A DNA stretch of 64,000 nucleotides, from assembly GCA_963827275.1 (NCBI GenBank), contig CAWHAA010000005.1:617924-681923 (forward strand), in the 5' to 3' direction. Positions 2,494-40,849 of the stretch are shown piece after piece (positions within the stretch are counted from its first letter, which is position 1; every line of letters begins with the position of its first letter). Below the pieces are notes generated by a model. That model did not search any database. It saw only the letters and a program-made list of their open reading frames with translations, and was not told the origin of the DNA. The position numbers and the translations under genes were made by a program. Origin of the DNA: an uncultured Spirochaetota bacterium (lineage in GTDB: Bacteria > Spirochaetota > UBA4802 > UBA5550).

Positions 2494-2523
2494 TTGACAG
2501 TTGTTAAAAAAGTATTATATGAT
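2494..2523 (+). promoter_or_regulatory. Sigma70-like promoter for the outer-membrane protein gene
   Basis: A perfect TTGACA at 2494-2499, an 18-nt spacer and TATGAT at 2518-2523. An AAGGAG ribosome-binding site follows at 2537-2542. A separate perfect TATAAT sits at 2486-2491. Confidence 0.35.
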
Positions 2524-2545
2524 CACACAATTTTATAAGGAGATA

Positions 2546-4090
2546 ATGGGTGCGGCAATGAAATTAAAAAATTTATCAATCCTGCTTACGATTTTCGTTT
2601 TCATCGGAGTATCATCGAACCTGTTCGCGAACCACTTTGGTGAAACTTTCGGGTTCTCCGCCGAAGGTATGGCGCGCGGAAACGCAATGACGGCCGTTGT
2701 TAATGACTGGTCTTCTGTTTTCTATAACGTGGGGGGCCTGGGAAAATCCCTCAACATAAAGGGAGCGGGTGCCGGCAGCCAGGGCGGGGAAATGACCCTG
2801 AAACTCAGGAAGAACGATGCCGGAGGAGATTCGGGAGAGAAAGAATTCTACCCGAACCAATTCGCATTGGGAGTAATGTATGTATTCCCGCAGCTCAAGC
2901 TGAACATCCAGCGCTTCGGGACAACCAGCACCGGTTCATTCATCCCTGTTACCACCGAAGCTTCCAACAAGCAGGACCCGTACGGTTTTATCACGGTCGG
3001 CGGCGTCCTCGACCTCAATAACGTCGTGAAGCTGCCTGACCTTATCTCGACGGCCCGCCTGGGCGTCGGCCTGGGGCTGAACGCAGACCTGACCGTTGCG
3101 AAGGTCAACGACATCGACCCGCGGACCCACAACTTCCTCCGCTACGGCAAGGAAATCTCCCGCCTGGCCCTCATGGTGGGCGCGGGCATGGGGTTCCTGA
3201 ATGACGCCTTCGGCGGCGGCATCGGATTTCACGGCAACTTTAACGGGAAAGGAAAGATGTTCATGGAAGCCCAGCTTACCGCGAACCCGCAGATCCCCAT
3301 CGCGCAGACAAACATGGACCTCGGCCTTGCACCCGGCGCCATCGCCGGCGTATACATCAGCCCGGGCAGAATCTTCAGCGCAATTGAAGGCCTCGAGCTC
3401 GGCGCGTCGTACCGGATGGAAAACAAGATGAAGGTCGAGCCCTTTGACGCGGCGGCCTCAATACTGGGCGGCGTCATCAACATGAACCTGATGCTCGAGA
3501 TCTTTGACTACTATTCACCCCACATCATTACGGGCGGCATCGCGTACAGCCGCTGGGGACTCACGTTGTCGGCTGACCTCAACTACGAGATGTGGTCGCG
3601 CATGATGGTGGGCAAATCGACGAAATACCATTACTATTCACTGCCGAAGTTTAACGACACGCTTTCATACAAGGTCGGTCTCAAGTACAACACCCCGGTC
3701 TCCTGGCTGGCGGTCATGGTCGGCTATTCATACGTGCCCAGCATCCTGGACAAAAAGACCGGCACCATGTACGCCTTCCGGCTGGGAACGGTGCAAAACC
3801 TGCTGCAGACCGGCATGTATAACATGATGGACAACAACAAGCACCTCGCATCGCTGGGATTCACCTTCACAATCCCGAAGATGTGGAAGCTCGGCGGCAT
3901 GGTCGTCATCACCGCATCCTACCAGTTCCAGTACCTGGAAACGGTAAGTGTTTCGAGAAACGGCCTGAGCATCGATCTTGCGACCGGGGCCCAGGACCCC
4001 GCGATGATCAACGCATACCTGCTGAACCCGAGCTATTCATACGGCGGGATGAACCACAGCATATTCTTCGAAGTCGGCATGAAGATATAA
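2546..4090 (+). CDS. Outer-membrane beta-barrel protein, FadL/TodX-like, with signal peptide
   Basis: The signal peptide is MKLKNLSILLTIFVFIGVSSNLFA. The protein is rich in alternating Gly/aromatic beta-strand segments. The N-terminal FYNVGGLG segment resembles the FadL hatch region. The start could be the ATG at 2546 or at 2558; the ORF track starts at a TTG at 2501. A rho-independent terminator follows. Confidence 0.55.
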   Translation: MGAAMKLKNLSILLTIFVFIGVSSNLFANHFGETFGFSAEGMARGNAMTAVVNDWSSVFYNVGGLGKSLNIKGAGAGSQGGEMTLKLRKNDAGGDSGEKEFYPNQFALGVMYVFPQLKLNIQRFGTTSTGSFIPVTTEASNKQDPYGFITVGGVLDLNNVVKLPDLISTARLGVGLGLNADLTVAKVNDIDPRTHNFLRYGKEISRLALMVGAGMGFLNDAFGGGIGFHGNFNGKGKMFMEAQLTANPQIPIAQTNMDLGLAPGAIAGVYISPGRIFSAIEGLELGASYRMENKMKVEPFDAAASILGGVINMNLMLEIFDYYSPHIITGGIAYSRWGLTLSADLNYEMWSRMMVGKSTKYHYYSLPKFNDTLSYKVGLKYNTPVSWLAVMVGYSYVPSILDKKTGTMYAFRLGTVQNLLQTGMYNMMDNNKHLASLGFTFTIPKMWKLGGMVVITASYQFQYLETVSVSRNGLSIDLATGAQDPAMINAYLLNPSYSYGGMNHSIFFEVGMKI

Positions 4091-22463: not shown

Positions 22464-24698
22464 TTATTTTCCTCCCGGGGTGATATACATAGTGTATATG
22501 CCGCGTAGATTGTGAAAGCCGAAGGTGCCGGCGCGGTCCCTGTCGCCATAATAAAATTCCGAGTTTGGGTCCGTCGAATAGGCATAGTTCATGAAAACGA
22601 GGGATTCCTCTATGCCGAAAAGCCCCGCAAGCGACGTGGCCTCCACCGGCTTCAGGGCCGCCCCCAGCGATCCGCGAAAGAGGGTGTCCGAGCCCCCGTC
22701 GAGCGGGAGGTCGTCGAGAACCGCGTCGGCGCCCGGGACGGTAAAGCGGCCGCGATGCAGGTTGCCCCACGTCCAGTCGTTAATGTCCGGGCCCAGGCTC
22801 CGGTTGAAAAAACGCATGGTGTTGAGGAAGGCGCGGTCAAAAATGGCGTCCCGGTGCTCGACCTTGTAGGTGGAACTGTCGTCAAAGGCGGACGATTTAT
22901 TCTCCTTGATGAGCGTGAAAAACCCCGGCGCCAGCAGGTCCCAGTGCGCCAGGACGCCGTCGGTCCGGTCCCGCAGCTCGTCGGCGAAGGTCTCGTACAT
23001 GAACCGCTGCAGCAGGATGTGGAAAATCGACGGGCCGTTGAAATCAGACTTCAGCTGGTATTTCCAGTTCTGGAAATAGACGCGCGTCAGCCGCGTCGAC
23101 GCCATCGGGTTGTCACCCAGGGTCACGAGGAACTCGGGGAGGAACATGCGGGCGATGGTAGAGCTCCTGTCCATCAGCACGTTCATGACATCCTCGTTGG
23201 TGAAGCGCTTTTTTTTGTCCAGCATCTTCGCAAGGCGCAGGTGGCGCAATTCATTGGGCAGCGCCCTTTCCCGCGCCGGGAGAGGCGCGTCTGAAACGAA
23301 CGAGCTGCCTGCTGTCCGCGCCCCCCCGCCGCCGGCCGCGTCAGGCAGAAGGGAGAGGTCCATCAGTACCGCCCGGGCCGGGTCATGGCCGCTCAGCAGC
23401 ATGGCGTCGGTCTTCTTCCCAACCGGCACCATGCCGGACCACGCTCTGCGCGCCTCCATGTCCGAGGAGAAGAGGTACACCCGGGGGAGCGACACCACCC
23501 CCCTGACGCGGGCCCCCGCCTCCGCGATCGTCCGTGAAAGGGGCACCTCGAACAGGGACGCGACATACTCGGGACCGAAAAAAACCGAGCGCACCGTGAC
23601 CACCGACGAGCCGTACTCGGGCGCGTCGAAGATGTCGTTGAGCACCGGCCCGTTCTCGGTGGCGTGGACCGGCGCCCCGCCGTCCCCGCCGGGCACAATT
23701 TCAAAATCGCGCCAGCCCGCCGCGCCGAGGTACTGGTATGTCGCGCCGGTCCTGATGATCGTCTCCGCGACAAGGTCCTGCGCGTCGATGTTCGCCGAAA
23801 ATCCGTAGAAGGAGAGGTCAAGGTTGTTTCCCGCGAAGATGAAGGGGAGCCCCGCGTGAGTGATCCCCTTGATGATGCGGCCGCCGCAGTGAACATGCAC
23901 CGGGTACCAGCCCGGATATACCGAGAGCATGTCCTCGAAGCTGTAGGCGGTCACCGGGTAGTTGTCCCTGATCTTCTGCGCCGGCAGGTAGAAGGCGTAG
24001 CCGCGGTCAAAGATCCCCGCGTGGTTCCGGACGAGCTCCTGCGCCTTCCTGACCGCCTCGACGCTGTCCGACTCGCTTTCGTCGTAGTAGTGGATGAGGC
24101 CTTCCGGGATGATGTCTCTGATGCCGCCGACGGCGGACCCGCGCTCGAACGCGAAGAGCGCCTCCCTGTTGTTGAGGAAGGCGTTGCACCATTCCCGAAG
24201 CGCCAGCACGGCAAGTATGTCCGCGGCATCCCAGTCGCGCGGCACCGCATCGGAAAGCTTCAGGCGCCGGCGCGCCTCGTTCACGCCGCGCGCGTACTCC
24301 CCGAGGTAGCCGGCATAGGGCTCTCTGACCCGTCCCGCGAGGTCGCGCGCCCTGCGCGCGAAGCCGACAGCCCGCGACAGGCGGTCAAGCGCCCGCCCCT
24401 CCTTCCCGAGGATGCCGGCCGAAGACCCTGCCGCCATCGCCCTGAAATATTCCATCATGGCATAGCGGTCCTGGGCATGCAAAAAGCCGAGGCCGAAATA
24501 CGCGTCTTCGAAGCCCTTCGCAGTGATGACGGGGGTCCCGCTGCTGTCGCGCTCGAGCATGACCCTGTCCCTGACGCCCGCGGCAAAGGAGCCGCTATAG
24601 GAGATCCTGCCGGAATAATGGATGAATGAAAGCACGCCGGCAACGCAGGCCGCCGCCGCTGCGAGGGATATTCCGGCGATGACGATTTTTTTCTTCAT
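22464..24698 (-). CDS. Penicillin amidase (S45, Ntn-hydrolase) family acylase with signal peptide
   Basis: About 744 aa from the ATG at 24698 (MKKKIVIAGISLAAAAACVAG...). Family motifs DSSGTPVITAKGFEDAYFGLGFLHAQDRYAMMEYFR and the downstream autoprocessing region are present. The ORF track's longer start at 24746 would overlap the upstream lipoprotein gene. Confidence 0.8.
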   Translation of the reverse strand: MKKKIVIAGISLAAAAACVAGVLSFIHYSGRISYSGSFAAGVRDRVMLERDSSGTPVITAKGFEDAYFGLGFLHAQDRYAMMEYFRAMAAGSSAGILGKEGRALDRLSRAVGFARRARDLAGRVREPYAGYLGEYARGVNEARRRLKLSDAVPRDWDAADILAVLALREWCNAFLNNREALFAFERGSAVGGIRDIIPEGLIHYYDESESDSVEAVRKAQELVRNHAGIFDRGYAFYLPAQKIRDNYPVTAYSFEDMLSVYPGWYPVHVHCGGRIIKGITHAGLPFIFAGNNLDLSFYGFSANIDAQDLVAETIIRTGATYQYLGAAGWRDFEIVPGGDGGAPVHATENGPVLNDIFDAPEYGSSVVTVRSVFFGPEYVASLFEVPLSRTIAEAGARVRGVVSLPRVYLFSSDMEARRAWSGMVPVGKKTDAMLLSGHDPARAVLMDLSLLPDAAGGGGARTAGSSFVSDAPLPARERALPNELRHLRLAKMLDKKKRFTNEDVMNVLMDRSSTIARMFLPEFLVTLGDNPMASTRLTRVYFQNWKYQLKSDFNGPSIFHILLQRFMYETFADELRDRTDGVLAHWDLLAPGFFTLIKENKSSAFDDSSTYKVEHRDAIFDRAFLNTMRFFNRSLGPDINDWTWGNLHRGRFTVPGADAVLDDLPLDGGSDTLFRGSLGAALKPVEATSLAGLFGIEESLVFMNYAYSTDPNSEFYYGDRDRAGTFGFHNLRGIYTMYITPGGK

Positions 24699-24742
24699 GG
24701 TGTAACGCTGCGGCCCGTGCCGGGGGGCCATCACGCCGGCGG

Positions 24743-25168
24743 TCACCGGGGCGTAATGGTCGCCTTGACGACCTCAAGCCTGGTATAGTAGTCATCGATG
24801 AGAGAGAAGAACCTGCCGAAATCGCCGACCGCGTTGATCCTGGATTTCGCCTTGACCAGCCCGGCAACGGTCTTCACGTCCTTCGAGTATATATGGCATT
24901 CCACGAGGCCCTTCTTCGTCAGCACGTCCGCGATCACGCAGAAATCATAGTCGATATTGGTTGAAACAACCACGTCCTTCACGGTCAGGCCGTAGAGGTG
25001 CACCTCGCGCTTCCCGAGCTCCTCGTTGATCAGGAACTTCATGGCCGGGTTGTCGGCCAGCTCCATCCTCGCCTTCTCCTCGACCACGCTTTCGATCAAA
25101 ATAGGCTCCTTGACACACGAGGTAAGGGCGATAACGCCGATCAGCAGTGATAACAGCCACTTCTTCAT
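24743..25168 (-). CDS. Small lipoprotein, unknown function
   Basis: 141 aa. MKKWLLSLLIGVIALTSCVKE has a lipobox (LTSC). It lies directly upstream of the acylase gene on the same strand. Confidence 0.5.
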   Translation of the reverse strand: MKKWLLSLLIGVIALTSCVKEPILIESVVEEKARMELADNPAMKFLINEELGKREVHLYGLTVKDVVVSTNIDYDFCVIADVLTKKGLVECHIYSKDVKTVAGLVKAKSRINAVGDFGRFFSLIDDYYTRLEVVKATITPR

Positions 25169-25304: not shown

Positions 25305-27413
25305 TCACGCGGGGCCGAACCGCTTGACCATCACGATAATGTTGCCGCTATCGTTGAAGGTGACTTCGTCAAACGCGTGCCTGATCATGAGCAGGCCCCG
25401 GCCGTGCATGAGCAGGCTGTTGTCGGGGCCCGCCGGGTCCCCGGAGAGCATGGCCCGGTGGTCAAAGCCGTTCCCCTCGTCGGCCACCAGGTAGGTCACG
25501 TGGTCCGCGTCGAGCGAGCATTCAACGTGCACCTTCCTCCCGCTGAAGGCCGGGTCCTTCTGGCGTTTTTTCACGAGATCAAAATACCCGCCGGAGAGCT
25601 GCGACGCCGTCTTCTCCTCGAAGCTGAGGCCGAGGTTGCCGTGCTCGATGGCGTTGATGATCGCCTCGCGGAGCGCGATCCTGATGTCGGATATCGGCCC
25701 CGGGTCCATGTAGCGTCCCAGGTTCCGCACCATGCGCTGGCTCATGAGCTCGGCGTTGCCGATATAGTTGTTGATGTCATACTCGTACCGTTCGGTCGCC
25801 AGGAAGGGCGTGAGCGCGTCATCGATAACCGGGGAGGCCTTCCCGAGGATGACGTACCCGGGGTTCCCCTCCTTCTTGTATTCCAGGGTCACCAGCATCT
25901 CCTTCGGCTCATGGCTGTATTTATCGTTCAGGGTCGAGAGGAACTGGACGCTCCCCTTCTTTTTTTTCTTGAGCGCCGTTATGTATTCCAGCACGATCTG
26001 CTGGTTGATGTTGAAGCGGTTTTCCTCGATATTGCTGAAAAGGTCGGGAAAGTTCGCGTCCAGGACCTCGTCCGGCTTGTACCCGAGATGGTACCGCACC
26101 GACCTGTTCATGCTGTGGATATTGTTTTTATCATCGAGCGTGAAGATAATATCGTCGGTGCTTTCCACGAGGTGCCGGTACCTGACCTCACCGCGGAGGA
26201 TCATGCTCTTCATGCTGTTGATCTTGTCCGCCATGGCAAACGAGAGCATGACGATCGCCGTTGACGAAGCGATCGGCAGCGCCCAGCGGGCGACAAAGCC
26301 GGAATGGATGACCCCCAGTATGCTGAGAATCACGACCGGGACAGAGAGCGCGAAGAGCGAAAAGGCCAGCAGCGCGAACCTGGCCTGGCGCGCTACCGGC
26401 GCCGGCCGGTCAATGAAACCGAGGTATATCCCGAACAGCACAAACCCGAGCGTCGCGACAACGGCGTCGAAATACATGAGGAGCAGGCTTGTCCTGGCAT
26501 CGATAACGACCGAAAGCGCCATGACCAGCAGTGACGATGCCACTATGAAGAGCAGGAACAGCAGGAACCTCCTGTAATAGCGATGGTCTTTTTCAAACTG
26601 CGCGAAATCGAACATGAAGAGGCTGAGGCTTATGATCGTCATGCCGCCGACCATCGGGTTCACGAGCCGCTGCAGCCATATCGAGCCGGGCCAGAGGTAC
26701 TGGAACGCGAAGCCCTTGAAGGCGAACTCCAGCAGTCCGTACGTCATGATAAAGCAGGCGAGATAGAAATGCCCGATCATACGGGAGGAGATGAAAAACA
26801 TGAAATTATAGAGCGCCATGGCCAGGAGAAGGCCGAAAAACAGCCAGTATGCGGGGAGTTCCCCCCTCATGCGGTCCACGTAGGCGTCCCGGGTAAGCAT
26901 GTTGAGATGAAATCCCATGGAGCTGAGCGACGTGACCCGGAGGTAGCAGGTCATGGGGCCCGGCTTCTGGGTCACCGGGAAGAGGAAGGTCGTGTCCTTG
27001 ATCTCCCGGTGATGAAACGGCAGGGTATCGCCGCCCCTCTTCACGGTATAGCCGCCCGACGCGCCCGGCACATACAGCTCCATCATGTCAATGGTCGGGG
27101 AATCGACCTCGCAGAGCCAGGGGAACGTTCTTCCCGTCCTGTTGTCCACGGTGAACCGGAACCAGATCCGGGCGGTGGTGTGGCCGAAGTTCACATAGCC
27201 CGACCGGTGCCTGGTCCATGCATGCGGTCCGCCGCCCATGACATCGGCCGGCGCAAGGCTGTTGCGGACGTCCCTGAGATACTCGATATCGCCGCTGATA
27301 TTCCTGATGGTCAGGGCATCGTCGAGGATTATCGCCGGGGCCGCCGACGAGGCCATGGCCCGGCCCGCGGGCAGGAGCAGCATAGCTGTCAATATCAACG
27401 CGCGCGTTTTCAT
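25305..27413 (-). CDS. 7TMR-DISM sensor protein with PAS domain and a serine-kinase-type HATPase (anti-sigma-factor-like) domain
   Basis: Signal peptide MKTRALILTAMLLLPAGRAMA. A periplasmic 7TMR-DISM_7TM-type domain and 7 transmembrane helices. PAS region EVRYRHLVESTDDIIFTLDD. The C-terminal segment ALREAIINAIEHGN...HGRGLLMIRHAFDEV resembles RsbW/SpoIIAB-type HATPase_c_2 and has no obvious His-kinase H-box. Confidence 0.7.
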   Translation of the reverse strand: MKTRALILTAMLLLPAGRAMASSAAPAIILDDALTIRNISGDIEYLRDVRNSLAPADVMGGGPHAWTRHRSGYVNFGHTTARIWFRFTVDNRTGRTFPWLCEVDSPTIDMMELYVPGASGGYTVKRGGDTLPFHHREIKDTTFLFPVTQKPGPMTCYLRVTSLSSMGFHLNMLTRDAYVDRMRGELPAYWLFFGLLLAMALYNFMFFISSRMIGHFYLACFIMTYGLLEFAFKGFAFQYLWPGSIWLQRLVNPMVGGMTIISLSLFMFDFAQFEKDHRYYRRFLLFLLFIVASSLLVMALSVVIDARTSLLLMYFDAVVATLGFVLFGIYLGFIDRPAPVARQARFALLAFSLFALSVPVVILSILGVIHSGFVARWALPIASSTAIVMLSFAMADKINSMKSMILRGEVRYRHLVESTDDIIFTLDDKNNIHSMNRSVRYHLGYKPDEVLDANFPDLFSNIEENRFNINQQIVLEYITALKKKKKGSVQFLSTLNDKYSHEPKEMLVTLEYKKEGNPGYVILGKASPVIDDALTPFLATERYEYDINNYIGNAELMSQRMVRNLGRYMDPGPISDIRIALREAIINAIEHGNLGLSFEEKTASQLSGGYFDLVKKRQKDPAFSGRKVHVECSLDADHVTYLVADEGNGFDHRAMLSGDPAGPDNSLLMHGRGLLMIRHAFDEVTFNDSGNIIVMVKRFGPA

Positions 27414-27483
27414 GTATGGCGGAAATACTAGCATATCAGCCGGAGTTTGTCAATACAAAGAGGATTGCGGGACGGGGTACGCG

Positions 27484-27678
27484 TTATTTCGAACAGCGCA
27501 CAAACCGCGCGACCGACCGGTCATAGGTCCGCTCGACCTCGTCGGGGAAAAAGCAGGCGGGGAGCTCGTTGGCCCTTCTGTGGTACTGGACGCACTCGCA
27601 GCACCGCCCCTTCCTGCTGCACGGCTCGTAGGTGCAGTTGCAGAAGGAGCTGTTTTTTTGCAGATTGTCACACGCCAT
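27484..27678 (-). CDS. Small cysteine-rich protein (zf-like Cys-rich small domain)
   Basis: 64 aa with 9 Cys in the pattern [21 protein letters not shown]...C...C. Codon usage is consistent with the genome. It sits between the EIIA-Zn-ribbon gene and the 7TMR sensor gene on the same strand. Confidence 0.5.
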
Positions 27679-27714
27679 ATGGCGCCTCCTGTGGGTACGG
27701 TGCCGCGGAACGGC

Positions 27715-28533
27715 CTATATCACGATGAGGAACCTGCCGCAGTGGTTGCACACGGCGATCTCCTTCGATTCCTTGATCTGCGCCATGTAGTAGGGCGCCA
27801 GGTCCATGTGGCAGCCCGAGCAGCTGTTCTTCTCGAGTATGGCGAAGGGGCTGAGGTTCCTCTTCCTCATCTTTTCGTAGTAGGCCAGGGACTTGCGGTC
27901 CACTATTTTTCTCAGCTCCTCGATCTTGTTTTTAATCTTGTCCGACGCCTCACCCTCGTCGATGAGCTGGTTCAGCCGGTCAAGGCGGACCAGAAGGTCG
28001 AGGTTGTACGACGGGATACCGCCAAGCCCGTCGGTGTGCGCCTTCTTGGGGCTGCTCTTGTCCGAGAGGCTTGCGAAGTAGAGATCGGCGTTTTTTTTGA
28101 GCGCGCTGTACGCCTGGACCCTGGTCTTCGCGCCGTCCAGCGACTTTTTCCTCTCCTCGTCCGCAAAAATCCACGACACCATCCCCACCAGGTAGAGGTA
28201 CTTGGTGCCCATCTCCGTGGGGACGATGTTCAGCAGCAGGTAGCGGACCGGGAGGTTGTCGTACGAATGGTACTCGATGTCCTCCTTCGAGATGGCGAAG
28301 ATGGAGACCAGTTCCTTCACCGAGTCGGTCCGGATGTGGGGTATGGCGAGTCCCCGCCCGATGCCGGTGTTCTCCAGGGATTCACGGTGCATTATCTGCG
28401 CGTAATACCTGCCGGCATCGTCGATCTTTTTCAATTCCTCGAGCTTGGTCAGCAATTCCTTTATCACGAGCTGTTTTTCAGCGGTTTTGGTGTACACCAG
28501 TTGATCTTTGGGGATAAAGCTTTCTATATTCAT
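27715..28533 (-). CDS. PTS EIIA(Ntr)-like domain fused to a C4 zinc-ribbon (COG1579 / zf-RING_7-type) domain
   Basis: The N-terminus (about 150 aa) carries the EIIA type-2 signature GIGRGLAIPHIRTD. The C-terminus has a coiled-coil followed by CSGCHMDLAPYYMAQIKESKEIAVCNHCGRFL, matching the COG1579 zinc-ribbon C-terminus. Confidence 0.65.
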   Translation of the reverse strand: MNIESFIPKDQLVYTKTAEKQLVIKELLTKLEELKKIDDAGRYYAQIMHRESLENTGIGRGLAIPHIRTDSVKELVSIFAISKEDIEYHSYDNLPVRYLLLNIVPTEMGTKYLYLVGMVSWIFADEERKKSLDGAKTRVQAYSALKKNADLYFASLSDKSSPKKAHTDGLGGIPSYNLDLLVRLDRLNQLIDEGEASDKIKNKIEELRKIVDRKSLAYYEKMRKRNLSPFAILEKNSCSGCHMDLAPYYMAQIKESKEIAVCNHCGRFLIVI

Positions 28534-28705
28534 CGTGGCCCTCTGTTAATCATGCAAGAATCAGCATAAATCATGTATCACATCTACCCCGCGGGCAAAT
28601 CTGTCAATAAAACATAATAATACGGCAAAAAAAATTTACTTGAAAAACTCTACAATCTTTGAATAATGACTTGCCATATACCACCCGGAACAGAAATTAT
28701 ACGGC

Positions 28706-29071
28706 ATGGCACGAAACGTAAAATCAGCGGAAGACAACATCGTCAACAGCATCATCGGCGAGGGCTCCAATTTCAAGGGAGAATTCAACATCAACGGCCT
28801 GTTGCGGATCGACGGGCACTTCCAGGGCACCATTGAAACCGAGGGCAAGGTCCTCATCGGCCAGACGGGCGAGGCGATCACCGACATCAAGGCGCGCATG
28901 GTGGTGGTGGGCGGCATGGTGCGCGGCAACATCTTCGCCACCGAGAAGGTCATTTTTCTTTCCACGGGGGTCATCAACGGCAACATCATCACGCCGAGCC
29001 TCTTCATGGAAGAGGGCGTGAAGTTCGAGGGCAGCTGCACCATCAATAAACGACCGGACGAACTGCAATGA
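28706..29071 (+). CDS. Bactofilin (polymer-forming cytoskeletal protein)
   Basis: 121 aa of beta-helical repeat sequence: FKGEFNINGLLRIDGHFQGTIETEGKVLIGQTGEAITDIKARMVVVGGMVRGNIFATEKVIFLSTGVINGNI, typical of the bactofilin/DUF583 family. Confidence 0.8.
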   Translation: MARNVKSAEDNIVNSIIGEGSNFKGEFNINGLLRIDGHFQGTIETEGKVLIGQTGEAITDIKARMVVVGGMVRGNIFATEKVIFLSTGVINGNIITPSLFMEEGVKFEGSCTINKRPDELQ

Positions 29072-29514
29072 TAGAAATAACCGGCGCGCGGACACGAAAG
29101 GACGAGAAGGAAAAGATCACGAAGAAATCCAGGCTCTCCTCTGTCAAGCACGGCGGCAAGACCTTCTCCGCAGAGCTCCACAAGACCATGGCCATGGAGT
29201 TCGAGGGCACCATCGACGAGCTCCTGGAGAGCCTCAGGGACCAGGAGAAGCAGTTCCTGGACAAGCAGACCGAATACGAGATGAACCGCTACAAGGCGAT
29301 CGTCCAGAAGATCCTCAAGTCGATACTCGCCGAGGCCCTCAAGGAAAAGACGATGAAGCCCAAGAAAAAGAACTGGGGCGACTACGTCATCATCGAAAAG
29401 ATCAACGAGAAGCTGCTTGACATCACCGGCGCGATCACCCGCGGCAACAAGGCCTTCGACCTGCTGAAGACCGTCGAGGAGATACGCGGCCTGGTACTTG
29501 ACCTGCTGTACTGA
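29068..29514 (+). CDS. Hypothetical protein, possibly YaaR/DUF327-like (call by position upstream of holB)
   Basis: 148 aa, charged and helical. Its start (ATGA) overlaps the bactofilin stop. Assignment rests on size and the conserved neighbourhood (YaaR-holB-PSP1 in Firmicutes-type order), not on a recognised motif. Confidence 0.35.
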   Translation: MIEITGARTRKDEKEKITKKSRLSSVKHGGKTFSAELHKTMAMEFEGTIDELLESLRDQEKQFLDKQTEYEMNRYKAIVQKILKSILAEALKEKTMKPKKKNWGDYVIIEKINEKLLDITGAITRGNKAFDLLKTVEEIRGLVLDLLY

Positions 29515-29526
29515 GCACGCCGCCCG

Positions 29527-30522
29527 ATGAACACCGCCGGCATTATCGGTCATTCCCATCAGCTGAAGATACTGGAGGTCCTCCGGCGGAACGGCGACGT
29601 CCCGCAGACGATGCTCTTCTCGGGCCGGCAGGGGATCGGGAAGAAGCTCATCGCGCGGCGGCTGCTCGCCTCCCTCTTCTGCGAGGACGGCAACCCGCCC
29701 TGCATGACCTGCCCCTCCTGCGTCCAGGCGGCGGGCGGCACCTTTCCCGACATCATCGAGATCGGCCCCAACGAGAAGGGGACCATCCCGATCGGCGACG
29801 CGGGCGAACCGGGGAGCGTGCGCTGGCTCATCGACCGGCTCTCGAAAAAATCGATCTGGGGGACCTACGGCGTGCTGATCGACGGGGCGGAGGCGATACG
29901 GGCCGAGGGGCAGAACGCCCTGCTCAAGACGATCGAGGAGCCGCAGGCGGGGGCGCACATCATCATCATCACCGCGAACCGCTCGCTCATCCTGCCGACC
30001 ATCCTCTCGCGCTGCATGAACCTCCCCTTCGCGCCCCTGGCGCCGCCGGAGGTGAAGGAGGCGCTCGCCGCCGCGGGGGCCGGCGCCGCGGACCCCGACC
30101 TCATCGCGGAGCTTGCCGGCGGCTCGCTGGAGACCGCGCTGCTCCTGTCGGACGGGAGCGTCCTCGAGGGGATCGCCGGCATCTGCGGGGAGATCTCGGC
30201 GTATCTCGCCCGCGGGGAGAGCCTGCGGCTCGACCTGGCCCCCCTCCAGAAGAAAATCGGCATGGACCAGCTCCTTTCGGTCCTGCTCACGATATACCGC
30301 GCCATCCTGGGAACCGCCATAGCCGGCGGCACGCCGCGGCCGTTCCTGGCCGGTTTCAGCGTGGAGGAGCGGGAAAAGTTGACCAAATTAATAAAAATTC
30401 TGCTTGCCCTCAGAAAAGGGCTCGCGAATAATTTAAATATCCGTAACGCGCTGAAGGGAATGCTCTATTCAATTGACAGCATGGGCAGCATCGGCCTGCC
30501 GGAGCTTGACGGTACGGAGTAA
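29527..30522 (+). CDS. holB: DNA polymerase III delta-prime subunit
   Basis: 331 aa. HQLKILEVLRRNGDVPQTMLFSGRQGIGKKLIARRLLASLFC (AAA+ Walker A-like), zinc module CMTCPSCV and the SRC motif (ILSRC). Confidence 0.85.
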   Translation: MNTAGIIGHSHQLKILEVLRRNGDVPQTMLFSGRQGIGKKLIARRLLASLFCEDGNPPCMTCPSCVQAAGGTFPDIIEIGPNEKGTIPIGDAGEPGSVRWLIDRLSKKSIWGTYGVLIDGAEAIRAEGQNALLKTIEEPQAGAHIIIITANRSLILPTILSRCMNLPFAPLAPPEVKEALAAAGAGAADPDLIAELAGGSLETALLLSDGSVLEGIAGICGEISAYLARGESLRLDLAPLQKKIGMDQLLSVLLTIYRAILGTAIAGGTPRPFLAGFSVEEREKLTKLIKILLALRKGLANNLNIRNALKGMLYSIDSMGSIGLPELDGTE

Positions 30523-37068: not shown

Positions 37069-38802
37069 TTACTCCAATCCCAATCGTATTGAAGGCAATA
37101 TATCCACGACCCAGCCCGGATTATTCAAAGACTGGTTTTCAGTGCCCAGCAAACGCCCCGGATAGCGGGTCGTGTTGCTCTCACCCTGCACGAAATTCTC
37201 TATCGCGGACGCGCCCGCGTCATGGCGAACATAGATCGCGAGGTTCTTCCCCGATGTATACCTGAACTCGGTATCAAGCGGTATGTTGACCCAATCCCCG
37301 GCCTTGAGTCCCGCAGGCACGGACACCGTGCCGGTAAAGACGGTTTTTTCATCATTCATGTTGTCCAGATATGAAGGACCGAGCGCAAGAGTATCGAGGT
37401 CGGAATGCCCGATGACAATGCTGATGTTTCCATAAGTCTCGGCAACCGAGTCGTTTTGGAGTCGGAACCCGATGCTGTTGATGCTGCCGTAAAGCCCAAG
37501 CTCAACTGCGCGGTACAGAGGCTGGAACTGACCGGTCACGGTCCCATGGAAGGGCGGATAGAGGTTGTGGTTCCCCGACCCTATCACGTCCGCCGTGCCA
37601 CCCTTGAAGCGGAACGTGATATTATTGAGGGCACTACTCAGATCACTTGGTGTATTGACCGAGCCCACAAGCCATGAATTCGCTCCTGCGGAACCATTCT
37701 TTACAAAAATATTTCCGTTTGGTGAAGTCACATATATTTCCACAACCAGGTTGTCAATTCCATTGTAATTAAATGCCCCGTCAAGCGGAAGCCACATATA
37801 TGCCCCATCCGGAATGCCTGCCGGCACCCTGAACTTCCTGTTTGTGGCCACGGTTACCGGTGAACCTGAATTGAAATTAGCATTCCATGACTCGGTCACC
37901 AGTTCAGTACGTGTGGTATGGCCGAGGCGTATCGTTACCGTGCATTCCCGTTCCACCGAATCAGTATGCGTGGCGAAACCGATGCCAATGATACCGCCCG
38001 AGCCATTGATCGTGCCCGCCGGATACAAAAGTTGCAATTTTTGGTAGGCAGCATCATTGATGAACGGAGGATTATTCCCGGTTGTTCCATAGTGCAGTCT
38101 GTTGTCCCCGCCGGCGAAGTTGAATTTTACATCAGGATAGGTATACGCTGTAATACCTGTCGTCGCAGTGCTTGCGCCTGATCCGGTACCATATACCGTG
38201 AAATAATTTACTCCATCTTCTGTATGTGTCGTTAGTACTACGCCGCCTGCTGTAGGTAATACCGGATTGCGGGAAACTTCAACGACCAGATTATCCACTC
38301 CGTTGTAATAGAACGGCTGGGTCAATTGAATAGTAAAATAATCGCACACTGTGCAATTCGGGATGGTTACGCTCTGGTTATCGAGCACTGTCGTGTAGGT
38401 TCCCTTGCCCTGTTGAACATTGCTGGCATAGGTACTGCTGAGCGTGGTCACACTCGTATGCCCCATTTTTATAGTCACCCCGTTGAAGGTCCTATCAGCT
38501 CCAGGAGAAGCATTGTATTTAAAGGAAATTGAAGTTATCATGCCGGCCCCCTTGATGTCGCCAGCCGGAAACATCATCATATACCGGCTTTCATCATGAG
38601 TGCCCCACATGCTTGATGCCGAGGATGCTCCCCCACCACCGATGACTTCTTTAACAAATACCCCCTGCACGGCAGGCGCACTGCCTCCGCCAAGCCCCAG
38701 GAGGGCCATAATGCCGCTATTGTCGCTCTTCACCTTGCTGCAGCCGGCCAGCATACATACCGAAAGAATTCCGATGAACATTACGCCGAGAAACTTTTTC
38801 AT
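37069..38802 (-). CDS. Large surface lipoprotein with three internal about 150-aa repeat domains (paralog A)
   Basis: 577 aa. Lipobox MKKFLGVMFIGILSVCMLAGCSK. Three internal repeats share the ...FxYNGxDNLVVE... pattern. Ribosome-binding site AAGGAGAG. No recognised domain. Confidence 0.6.
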   Translation of the reverse strand: MKKFLGVMFIGILSVCMLAGCSKVKSDNSGIMALLGLGGGSAPAVQGVFVKEVIGGGGASSASSMWGTHDESRYMMMFPAGDIKGAGMITSISFKYNASPGADRTFNGVTIKMGHTSVTTLSSTYASNVQQGKGTYTTVLDNQSVTIPNCTVCDYFTIQLTQPFYYNGVDNLVVEVSRNPVLPTAGGVVLTTHTEDGVNYFTVYGTGSGASTATTGITAYTYPDVKFNFAGGDNRLHYGTTGNNPPFINDAAYQKLQLLYPAGTINGSGGIIGIGFATHTDSVERECTVTIRLGHTTRTELVTESWNANFNSGSPVTVATNRKFRVPAGIPDGAYMWLPLDGAFNYNGIDNLVVEIYVTSPNGNIFVKNGSAGANSWLVGSVNTPSDLSSALNNITFRFKGGTADVIGSGNHNLYPPFHGTVTGQFQPLYRAVELGLYGSINSIGFRLQNDSVAETYGNISIVIGHSDLDTLALGPSYLDNMNDEKTVFTGTVSVPAGLKAGDWVNIPLDTEFRYTSGKNLAIYVRHDAGASAIENFVQGESNTTRYPGRLLGTENQSLNNPGWVVDILPSIRLGLE

Positions 38803-39100: not shown

Positions 39101-40849
39101 TTATCTTGAAATTTTAAACTTCATATTAAACTTATAATCCTGCGGTGTTCCCACGGTAGCATTCCCCGGAACGCCAGCCGCCATTTGACCCGGATATCTC
39201 GTTGCATTCGATGATGATACTATGCAACTATGGCTTGGGATAGCCGGAAATGTGGTCGCCGTGGTACCCAGCCAGACAGCAAGATTACTAGTACCATTAT
39301 AGATAAACGGTTGTGTCAGCGGGATTTCGATCCAGTCACCCTGTACAAGACCGGCAGGCATTGAAAAGAAACCGTTAAGCGCAATCAACTGGTCATTAAA
39401 GTTACCAGCAGCAGGGTCCGCCACCAGAGGATCCGCGCTGCTGTGTCCAATAATAACCCGATAATTGTTATAGGTTGTCGCAGTTGATGATGGACTGTTC
39501 AAGCGGCAGGCAATAGAAGTAATGGTGCCGGCCGAGCCCAGCTCCGTGGCACGGTACAGGGTTAACCTGCCTTCTGCATTTGTGGAAAATGGCATGCTGG
39601 TTGACGAACCACTGGCAGTTATAACGTCCATGGTGCCGCCGGCGAAGCGGAGTACCGGTTCAAATGCGCGCTGTCGAATGGTACCGGTAGGACTTAATGG
39701 ATTTGTTGAAGATACAACACGATATGGTATAATATTATTGTATTGAAGCAAGTAACTACCCGAATCGACAATACATGTTATATCTATCAACAGATTACTT
39801 GTTCCGTCATAAAAAAAACGACTTTTATTAAAAGGTATCCAGACAGTTGACGGTTGTTCAGCAGGCACAGTGTATGCGATATCCTGTGCTACGATAACCG
39901 GGGCATTATCGCCATAATTATCAGTAAATGTGGTAACAAGACCCGTTGTGGAAACAGGAACATGAGCAACACTTACAGTCATATTTGAAACAACAGTTAA
40001 AGCAGTAACACTGTACGGATGCAAAGCCAAGCCCGTAATCAATCCGCTGCCATTAATATCAGATGCCAAGATAAGCATCTGAGTACGTCCAGTTGTACCA
40101 GGTGCCAATGTAAGGCCATTTGGTCCAGTTTTATCAGAACAAATCACATTATTTGTCCCGCCCGCGAACTTGAACTTCACATGATGCGGGCTCTGGCTGG
40201 TTTGTGTCGCCGTATCAGGCGTGGCGCTGCTTGTGCTGTACACCCTGCCGGTATACGGGACCGCCCCGGCGCCGGTTGTGAGCCGGACCCCGCCGGTGCA
40301 GGCCGACGTCCGGGTGATATCGACCACGAGATTGTCCACCCCGTTGTAATTGAACCGGGTATCGAGCGGTATTTCAAAATATTCCCCCGCGGCGCCCGCG
40401 GGGATGCTCACCGCCCTGTCCAGGACCGTCACGGCAGAGCCCTTGCCCTGGTTGACGTTCGAGGTCATATCCGTATTGAGCGCGGGAACAGAAGAATGCC
40501 CGAGCCTGATGGTGACGCGCGGACAGGAGAGCGCCTGGCTGTTTTCATAGTACCGGAAGTAGATGGACGCGATATTGCCGGACCCGGCGATGTCCGCAGG
40601 CAGGTACAGGAACTGGTAGTGGCGGAACTCCTCCCCGTTGAACGGGCCCAGGATGGAGCTGGTCGGGTTGCTCAGCGCGACCGTCTTGATAAAATTCGGC
40701 CCGCCGGAGAGGCCGAGCAGGGCCAGCATGGAATTGTCTTCTTTTTCCCTGTTGCAGACGGTCAGTGCGAGCAACGAAACAATCAATGTGAATAATGCCA
40801 TATATAGCTTTTTCATGACCTTCCCCCATGTTGATGCGCATATGCCCAC
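39101..40849 (-). CDS. Large surface lipoprotein (paralog B of 37069-38802)
   Basis: 582 aa. Lipobox MKKLYMALFTLIVSLLALTVCNR. Shares the MLALLGLSGG, NVNQGKG..TVLD and FNYNGVDNLVVD repeat-domain blocks with paralog A at roughly 35-40% identity. Ribosome-binding site GGGGGAAGG. Confidence 0.6.
   Translation of the reverse strand: MGICASTWGKVMKKLYMALFTLIVSLLALTVCNREKEDNSMLALLGLSGGPNFIKTVALSNPTSSILGPFNGEEFRHYQFLYLPADIAGSGNIASIYFRYYENSQALSCPRVTIRLGHSSVPALNTDMTSNVNQGKGSAVTVLDRAVSIPAGAAGEYFEIPLDTRFNYNGVDNLVVDITRTSACTGGVRLTTGAGAVPYTGRVYSTSSATPDTATQTSQSPHHVKFKFAGGTNNVICSDKTGPNGLTLAPGTTGRTQMLILASDINGSGLITGLALHPYSVTALTVVSNMTVSVAHVPVSTTGLVTTFTDNYGDNAPVIVAQDIAYTVPAEQPSTVWIPFNKSRFFYDGTSNLLIDITCIVDSGSYLLQYNNIIPYRVVSSTNPLSPTGTIRQRAFEPVLRFAGGTMDVITASGSSTSMPFSTNAEGRLTLYRATELGSAGTITSIACRLNSPSSTATTYNNYRVIIGHSSADPLVADPAAGNFNDQLIALNGFFSMPAGLVQGDWIEIPLTQPFIYNGTSNLAVWLGTTATTFPAIPSHSCIVSSSNATRYPGQMAAGVPGNATVGTPQDYKFNMKFKISR

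Follow-up and report, generated by a model that had tools for sequence, protein, structure and literature searches.

Do three closely spaced genes in the genome of an uncultured Spirochaetota bacterium form a single signaling unit, and what is the fusion protein that the first of them encodes? The genes lie in a stretch of 64,000 nucleotides (assembly GCA_963827275.1, contig CAWHAA010000005.1, positions 617,924 to 681,923), here called the window; coordinates without a locus number refer to it, and all three genes with their features are on the minus strand. In the direction of reading they encode a 272-amino-acid (aa) protein in which an enzyme IIA (EIIA) domain of the phosphotransferase system (PTS) is joined to a zinc ribbon (27715..28533, stop codon included), a 64-aa protein with nine cysteines that belongs to the family DUF6485 (27484..27678), and a 702-aa 7TMR-DISM sensor (25305..27413). 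The longest open reading frame (ORF) for the sensor spans 25305-27434 (709 aa), and its relatives start at the ATG at 27413, which gives 702 aa. The gaps are 36 bp between the first two genes and 70 bp, measured to that ATG, between the second and the third, so that the arrangement given in the preliminary description of this DNA is borne out by the ORF coordinates, as is the cysteine count of the small protein. That description went on to read the three genes as one module leading from an envelope stimulus to partner switching or a phospho-relay. Our best explanation, about as likely as not, is that the block is three separate genes held together by local synteny and that the fusion protein is a stand-alone regulator that would dock on the transcription machinery.

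Our comparisons covered 80 loci from species-representative genomes and 13 from exact-protein look-ups, and gene positions in the key loci were taken from tblastn, called genes, and the ORF listing. Greedy ORF calling picks antisense ORFs in GC-rich DNA (e.g., 28636-29958) and was hence not relied on.

The fusion protein begins with a type 2 EIIA domain (residues 7-147; 28093..28515) whose closest relatives are PtsN/EIIA-Ntr proteins. The Pfam family PTS_EIIA_2 (PF00359) matches it over profile positions 3-143/144 with an E value of 3e-23 and 82.6 bits (cut-off, 27), that is, as a full-length domain above the gathering score. A profile search of the PDB ranked 1a6j, the Escherichia coli PtsN, first (7e-13), followed by 2a0j, 4gqx, and 3urr, all of them PtsN/EIIA-Ntr structures. 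Foldseek gave template-modeling (TM) scores of 0.80 to 0.85 to 3urr_A/B, 2a0j, 4gqx_A, and 1a6j_A, and 0.73 to the second 1a6j chain. The predicted phospho-acceptor is His66 (codon checked at 28336..28338), which lies in an AIPH motif and, in the alignment to 1a6j, falls on His73, the phosphorylated residue of E. coli PtsN.

Behind the EIIA domain comes a linker (residues 159-172; 28018..28059) that is predicted to be disordered, with a predicted local distance difference test (pLDDT) score below 50 in the AlphaFold2 model and with columns that are variable or gapped in the family alignments. Three conserved helices follow (residues 175-224; 27862..28011), as evidenced by AlphaFold2 models and by an alignment with the last helices of the COG1579 proteins HP0958 and CT398; within this segment the helix DLDLLIRLDRL is near-invariant, and its Leu184 does not vary across phyla. 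The protein ends in a C4 zinc ribbon (residues 237-269; 27727..27825) with Cys238, Cys241, Cys262, and Cys265. Here Zn_ribbon_9 (PF02591) matches over its full 33 positions (E value, 6e-8; 33.1 bits; cut-off, 29.1), and the PDB profile search with the C-terminal part returned HP0958 (3na7, 2e-6), CT398 (4ilo, 8e-6), and also MSMEG_4306. In an hhalign comparison with 236-aa canonical members of COG1579 from the same clade, the alignment covered the ribbon alone (residues 224-271), with a probability of 96%. Because Foldseek with the whole protein gave EIIA matches only, residues 165-272 were modeled alone (pLDDT, 80.7), and the top three matches of this model were CT398, MSMEG_4306, and HP0958, exactly the solved COG1579 structures. 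Pfam found no match to PF24481 (CT398_CC) in the fusion protein, whose ribbon is preceded only by short helices totaling about 50 residues. The protein is, then, a PtsN-like head followed by a disordered linker, three short helices, and a COG1579-type ribbon, without the long coiled-coil hairpin. Pfam thus confirmed the EIIA and zinc-ribbon assignments of the preliminary description, and likewise the HATPase_c_2 domain of the sensor discussed below, well beyond chance, and the fused architecture is conserved.

How widespread is this fusion? A word-indexed search returned 179 close homologues; among the 120 listed, almost all are 271 to 273 aa long and nearly all carry both Pfam domains, and those with an organism name come from Spirochaetota metagenome-assembled genomes (MAGs). 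When 1.84 billion cluster representatives were searched exhaustively with HMMER, 24 further full-length clusters at the 50%-identity level were added, 21 to 32% identical. A profile search named Candidatus Poribacteria, Lindowbacteria, Hydrogenedentes, and Nitrospiraceae among the hosts. Together, the searches point to hundreds of family members of 266 to 297 aa in Spirochaetota, Nitrospirota (Nitrospiraceae), Poribacteria, Hydrogenedentes, and Lindowbacteria, and the architecture is thus present in other genomes from at least five phyla. Down to 21% identity, R50, E51, A63, P65, H66, D92, L184, and the four cysteines of the ribbon are invariant. Literature searches that combined COG1579 with EIIA, EIIANtr with zinc ribbon, and the Pfam names found no description of an EIIA-zinc-ribbon fusion. 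The preliminary remark that this architecture had not been seen described therefore holds for the papers found but not for the databases, where it is common, with hundreds of entries labeled "PTS sugar transporter subunit IIA." The family is widespread yet uncharacterized, and it is a combination of known kinds of modules rather than something categorically new.

By sequence identity, the fusion proteins fall into one paralogue group of the window type (62 to 90%) and larger groups with at most 58%. Seven MAGs carry one copy from each side of this split, both with the ribbon and in different genomic contexts (locus pairs L002/L065, L003/L030, L001/L037, L033/L032, L005/L031, L006/L046, and L004/L076), and a second copy probably lies outside the window in the genome studied here. 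Some genomes with the fusion gene also have, about 5 kb away from it, a canonical COG1579 gene for 232 to 236 aa, with both CT398_CC and Zn_ribbon_9 (L014 1352-2062, L023 1100-1810, L026 1099-1809, and L029 1181-1879); therefore, the fusion protein does not simply replace the canonical protein.

If the three genes formed a unit, their order and orientation should persist beyond close relatives, and no promoter should lie within the block. The order fusion gene, DUF6485 gene, sensor gene, lipoprotein gene, and penicillin amidase gene recurs only in L081 and L082/L083, whose fusion proteins are 85 to 90% identical to that of the window. At 70 to 73% identity (L001 and L002), the DUF6485 gene is inverted and converges with the fusion gene; L002 retains the sensor, and in L001 a tandem pair of sensor paralogues lies on the same contig, at a distance of about 7 kb from the fusion gene (L090 2802-7139; 7TMR-DISM/PAS/HATPase_c_2 proteins of 701 and 712 aa). 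In L089, three unrelated genes separate the fusion gene from the sensor, and DUF6485 is absent. Neither neighbor lies beside the fusion gene in L003, L033, or L004-L006, and L003 and L033 keep the flanks, with bactofilin-DUF327-holB upstream and the lipoprotein-amidase pair downstream (metG was also detected in L033). The approximately 75 more distant loci show unrelated housekeeping contexts without the two neighbors, and L091 has the sensor without the fusion gene.

The product of the DUF6485 gene is assigned to its family by Pfam (E value, 2e-9), and a strong AGGAGG ribosome-binding site precedes the gene. Among the five genomes in which it adjoins the fusion gene, it shares the strand of that gene in the window, L081, and L082 but faces the other way in L001 (7839-8033) and L002 (7889-8083), and no cluster of small ORFs is shared beside the fusion gene in the other loci; tblastn with a 64-aa query may miss very distant DUF6485 genes. 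An invertible element around the gene was considered, and an inverted-repeat search of the window, L001, and L002 gave short arms at chance level only. We found no relative of the protein in the PDB and no papers on it. It is best explained as an independent small metal-binding protein, whose gene is a neighbor of the other two rather than a demonstrated partner.

The sensor has a clear domain structure. Pfam assigned 7TMR-DISMED2 (26895-27293; E value, 1e-29), 7TMR-DISM_7TM (26223-26849; 2e-27), PAS (25923-26183; 1.6e-7), and HATPase_c_2 (25323-25694; 3e-16). The last of these (PF13581) covers residues 581-704 with 60 bits (cut-off, 27.4) and holds the ATP-binding motifs N-box, G1, and G2 (EAIINAIEHGN at 590, DEGNGFD at 652, and HGRGL at 677). 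Pfam gave no HisKA or HATPase_c match in the sensor, which is thus not a classical two-component histidine kinase, and the JGI name "LadS histidine kinase" is a misnomer because PF13581 is found in their place. The earlier assignment of a 7TMR-DISM and PAS receptor with an RsbW-type kinase domain is accordingly supported by both the Pfam matches and the motifs. This PAS plus HATPase_c_2 output on a 7TMR-DISM receptor occurs in only about 15 protein clusters, all from this spirochaete clade, and more distant 7TMR-DISM relatives have HisKA plus HATPase_c, MCP-signal, or GGDEF outputs.

A promoter scan also placed a sigma-70-type promoter-like site directly before the sensor gene (27425..27453; TTGACA-17-TAGTAT with TG). 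Upstream of the sensor, TTGACA and TG do not vary among the window, L081, L082, L002, and L089, irrespective of the gene that precedes. In the window, 11 nt separate the end of the -10 element from the ATG at 27413, and a Shine-Dalgarno sequence is lacking; the transcript may have no leader or an extremely short one. Sequence comparison suggests that the sensor is a lineage-specific receptor with a promoter to itself. Its kinase domain presumably targets an antagonist of the STAS type or a sigma factor whose gene lies in another part of the genome; neither STAS nor PP2C gave a credible hit in motif scans of the window, and Pfam families for STAS, PP2C, and sigma factors are absent within 10 kb in L081 and L082 and within 5 kb in L089, L090, and L091.

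These observations bear directly on the proposal that the three genes encode one unit, in which the sensor detects an envelope stimulus and its RsbW-like domain works with the EIIA-zinc-ribbon protein (and the DUF6485 protein) under a nitrogen-PTS input. The genes are indeed co-directional, their spacers are short with no terminator-like site between them on the minus strand, and three loci (L081, L082, and L083) share the order. PtsN of E. coli binds the sensor kinases KdpD and PhoR, a precedent for contact between such proteins, and the recurrence of the sensor in the same region of several relatives (L002, L089, and L001/L090) leaves room for a loose functional tie; both points count against a strictly stand-alone fusion protein. 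Nevertheless, we consider a single unit very unlikely, because the linkage is lost outside the closest relatives, the DUF6485 gene is inverted in L001 and L002, a conserved separate promoter precedes the sensor, and no STAS, PP2C, or sigma gene lies nearby. Moreover, RsbW-type kinases target STAS domains, and the EIIA fold is not a STAS fold. The neighborhood comparison, which the preliminary description had named as a check on its module, thus largely refutes it, and the description of these genes as a three-gene "module" should not be propagated, since ordinary local synteny accounts for it.

If the fusion protein acts apart from its neighbors in the window, do its other genomic contexts tell what it does? 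Outside the window-type group, the fusion gene sits in at least five further housekeeping contexts, in which the downstream gene is mostly convergent and the fusion gene, as a rule, is either monocistronic or the final gene of a series. It follows Ogg and converges with cls-clpC-mcsB-mcsA, follows uvrC and a TPR gene and converges with a PHP gene, or follows an acyl-CoA synthetase gene and converges with SPFH-NfeD; elsewhere it stands between argJ with an outer membrane protein (OMP) gene and SLT, stands between rsmE-HIT-aroE and a cNMP-binding gene, or converges with lgt-lspA-dksA-ileS. A 7TMR sensor, DUF6485, a PTS permease, and rpoN are missing from all of these contexts. About 95 neighborhoods lack any gene for EIIB or EIIC, and rpoN, hpf, and ptsO are absent from the same neighborhoods and, by motif scan, from the window, so that the rpoN-linked ptsN cluster is not seen. 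In one distant clade, where rsmE-HIT-aroE precedes, a cNMP_binding gene for about 150 aa is co-directional and begins 17 to 83 bp after the fusion gene (L087 6863-7318, L088 3832-4272, and L092 6870-7319), and it may be a lineage-specific operon partner. At L093 (1-5592), an operon for TPR, FlgN-like, PAS-HisKA kinase, and sigma-54-dependent response-regulator proteins is divergent from a distant fusion gene.

The likeliest role that we infer for the fusion protein is that of an adaptor controlled by a phosphohistidine and docking on the transcription machinery. Depending on the metabolic state, His66 would receive a phosphate from a regulatory PTS chain (EI to HPr/NPr) that serves no transporters, and the phosphorylation state would control what the protein does at the docking site of its zinc ribbon. 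That site would most likely be RNA polymerase (beta-prime) or the sigma-54 holoenzyme, with a bound RNA as the alternative, and the protein would in effect act as a PtsN anchored to the transcription apparatus. We propose a regulatory role like that of PtsN, with His66 as the phosphorylated residue, because no permease genes lie nearby, because Leptospira and allied lineages have a regulatory EI/HPr chain without PTS transporters (PMC2405797), and because sigma-54 controls nitrogen genes in Leptospira (PMC12655853). Tethering is favored because the fusion retains the ribbon and the connecting helices, while the EIIA domain takes the place of the coiled coil. Work on COG1579 proteins provides the candidate partners. 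The zinc ribbon of HP0958 is needed for RpoN accumulation in Helicobacter pylori (PMC3372290). As summarized secondhand from Barta 2015, CT398 binds RpoN, RNA polymerase, FliH, and CdsL, and its coiled coil alone binds RpoN (PMC5947703); the same account has the COG1579 ribbon and coiled coil together binding FliH and CdsL. AlphaFold3 models in a 2026 preprint anchor the ribbon of ML1638/CT398 on the beta-prime shelf and jaw of RNA polymerase, with the coiled coil reaching the sigma site (10.64898/2026.07.15.738315).

On this basis, we tentatively propose that the EIIA-zinc-ribbon family may physically couple the regulatory PTS to the transcription machinery, in that the ribbon would anchor a PtsN-like domain on beta-prime or the sigma-54 holoenzyme and the phosphoenolpyruvate/PTS state would directly tune the use of sigma factors or the stability of sigma-54. 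The chance that this far-reaching version is correct is a minor one. Several observations weigh against the docking adaptor in general. The fusion protein lacks the long coiled-coil hairpin with which CT398 binds RpoN, and hhalign aligns the ribbon alone. The structural likeness of the C-terminal module to COG1579 is statistically weak (Foldseek E values, 0.09 to 0.28), and the docking of the ribbon on beta-prime is itself a preprint prediction. Motif scans of the 64-kb window found no EI, HPr, HprK, or rpoN, a scan for GAFTGA gave nothing credible, and the sigma-54 -24/-12 consensus has no match there. A sigma-54 activator lies near the fusion gene in only one of about 95 loci (L093). Both the phosphorylation of His66 and the binding partner are predictions from sequence.

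Three other accounts of the fusion protein deserve comparison with the tethered regulator. The database names imply a true sugar-transport EIIA of the fructose/mannitol class, and a weak match to the TIGR00848 fruA domain points the same way, with a score of 74 that falls below the cut-off of 103.5. This account is hardly credible, given that EIIB and EIIC genes are missing from about 95 neighborhoods, that the best matches in both sequence and structure are PtsN, and that the PTS of Leptospira and relatives lacks transporters. More plausible, though still rather unlikely, is an ordinary PtsN-type regulator that acts through its EIIA domain on metabolic or transport targets and uses the helices and ribbon for oligomerization, stability, or localization only. 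Zinc ribbons are often structural modules, the EIIA domain is complete and PtsN-like, and the housekeeping contexts show no transcription theme. Against such a passive ribbon, the C-terminal module (L184, the four cysteines, and the GRFL motif) is more conserved across phyla than much of the EIIA domain, the ribbon is specifically of the COG1579 type, and the seven MAGs with two paralogues keep it in both. We consider it rather unlikely that the protein is an RNA-binding regulator under PTS control, whose ribbon would bind specific mRNAs and whose EIIA phosphorylation would modulate translation or stability. The HP0958 ribbon is reported to bind flaA mRNA (PMC5947703, a secondhand statement citing Douillard 2008), the annotation of COG1579 predicts that it binds nucleic acids (PMC8469502), and the ribbon module here has conserved Lys, Arg, and His residues. 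However, the present data identify no RNA partner, no conserved RNA gene or Rfam match lies nearby, and the same ribbon is alternatively predicted to dock on RNA polymerase in the preprint models.

The proposed coupling of the PTS to transcription, if true, would be a Rosetta-stone fusion that explains the genetic linkage of ptsN and rpoN in Proteobacteria, where PtsN is encoded in the rpoN operon. To our knowledge, EIIA-Ntr has not been connected directly, at the molecular level, with sigma-54 or RNA polymerase, and the COG1579 proteins FlgZ and CdsZ are the only known sigma-54 chaperones or RNA polymerase-associated zinc-ribbon proteins. A natural fusion of both modules in at least five phyla therefore offers a testable lead on the long-standing PtsN-sigma-54 question. 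Our analysis also corrects a systematic misannotation, the sugar-transporter label on hundreds of entries.

Several other features of the window were recorded. Next to the sensor gene, a 141-aa lipoprotein gene of no known family overlaps the start of the penicillin-amidase-family gene by 4 bp (22464-25168), and this pair is conserved in L003, L033, L081, L082, and L089, independently of the sensor. Three stretches of low GC content (45 to 51% versus about 60%) at 2501-4090, 37069-38802, and 39101-40849 contain ORFs of 529, 577, and 582 aa that match no Pfam family; L082 encodes proteins of 572 and 582 aa without a Pfam match at the equivalent position, beyond a DEAD-box helicase. Scans of 1-64000 gave neither a tRNA gene nor an Rfam family at gathering score, and the PADLOC defense models had no match.

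How, finally, do these proteins compare with known systems? The sensor shares with the serine kinases RsbW and SpoIIAB a HATPase_c_2 domain with N-box, G1, and G2 and without a DHp/HisKA domain. Unlike them, it is fused to 7TMR-DISM and PAS domains, has no adjacent STAS or PP2C gene, and reaches only 30 bits in NCBIfam against the 145-bit RsbW equivalog cut-off. With 7TMR-DISM receptors of the LadS/RetS type it shares the periplasmic DISMED2 domain and the 7TM module, and it differs from the known relatives in its PAS plus HATPase_c_2 output.

The fusion protein resembles PtsN/EIIA-Ntr (E. coli, 1A6J; Neisseria meningitidis, 2A0J; Burkholderia, 3URR and 4GQX) in its fold and its AIPH phosphohistidine motif, and it is cytosolic, with no linked permease genes, as expected of a regulatory PTS protein. 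In contrast to PtsN, it has about 125 additional C-terminal residues that form the linker, three helices, and ribbon; it scores 48.2 bits against the TIGR01419 cut-off of 138.7 and 39.5 bits against the NF008145 cut-off of 221 (NCBIfam); and its gene is never in a rpoN-hpf-ptsN-rapZ-ptsO context among the loci examined. With the COG1579 proteins FlgZ/HP0958 (3NA7), CdsZ/CT398 (4ILO), and MSMEG_4306 (5Y05) it shares a C-terminal Zn_ribbon_9, the CXXC-X20-CXXC pattern, the GR(F/I)L tail, and the connecting helix. It differs from them in having an EIIA domain in place of the approximately 170-residue coiled-coil hairpin (PF24481), and it reaches 28.9 bits, over residues 191-268 only, against the CdsZ equivalog cut-off of 275 (NCBIfam). 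Because its scores fall below these cut-offs, the rpoN context is lacking, and the coiled-coil hairpin is missing, the fusion protein is a member of neither the PtsN nor the CdsZ family.

Among 349 Pfam entries for DUF164 proteins, Pereira et al. (2011) counted only three with a further domain and described just one of these, a NIF3 fusion, with no mention of an EIIA fusion (PMC3372290). No unfused pair of EIIA and COG1579 genes was seen among the loci examined here. The closest parallel is that NIF3 fusion, WS2117 of Wolinella succinogenes (NIF3-DUF164; PMC3372290), which arose by fusion of two neighboring genes and has NIF3, not EIIA, as the partner; as in the protein described here, a DUF164/Zn_ribbon_9 ribbon is joined to another domain and forms the C terminus.

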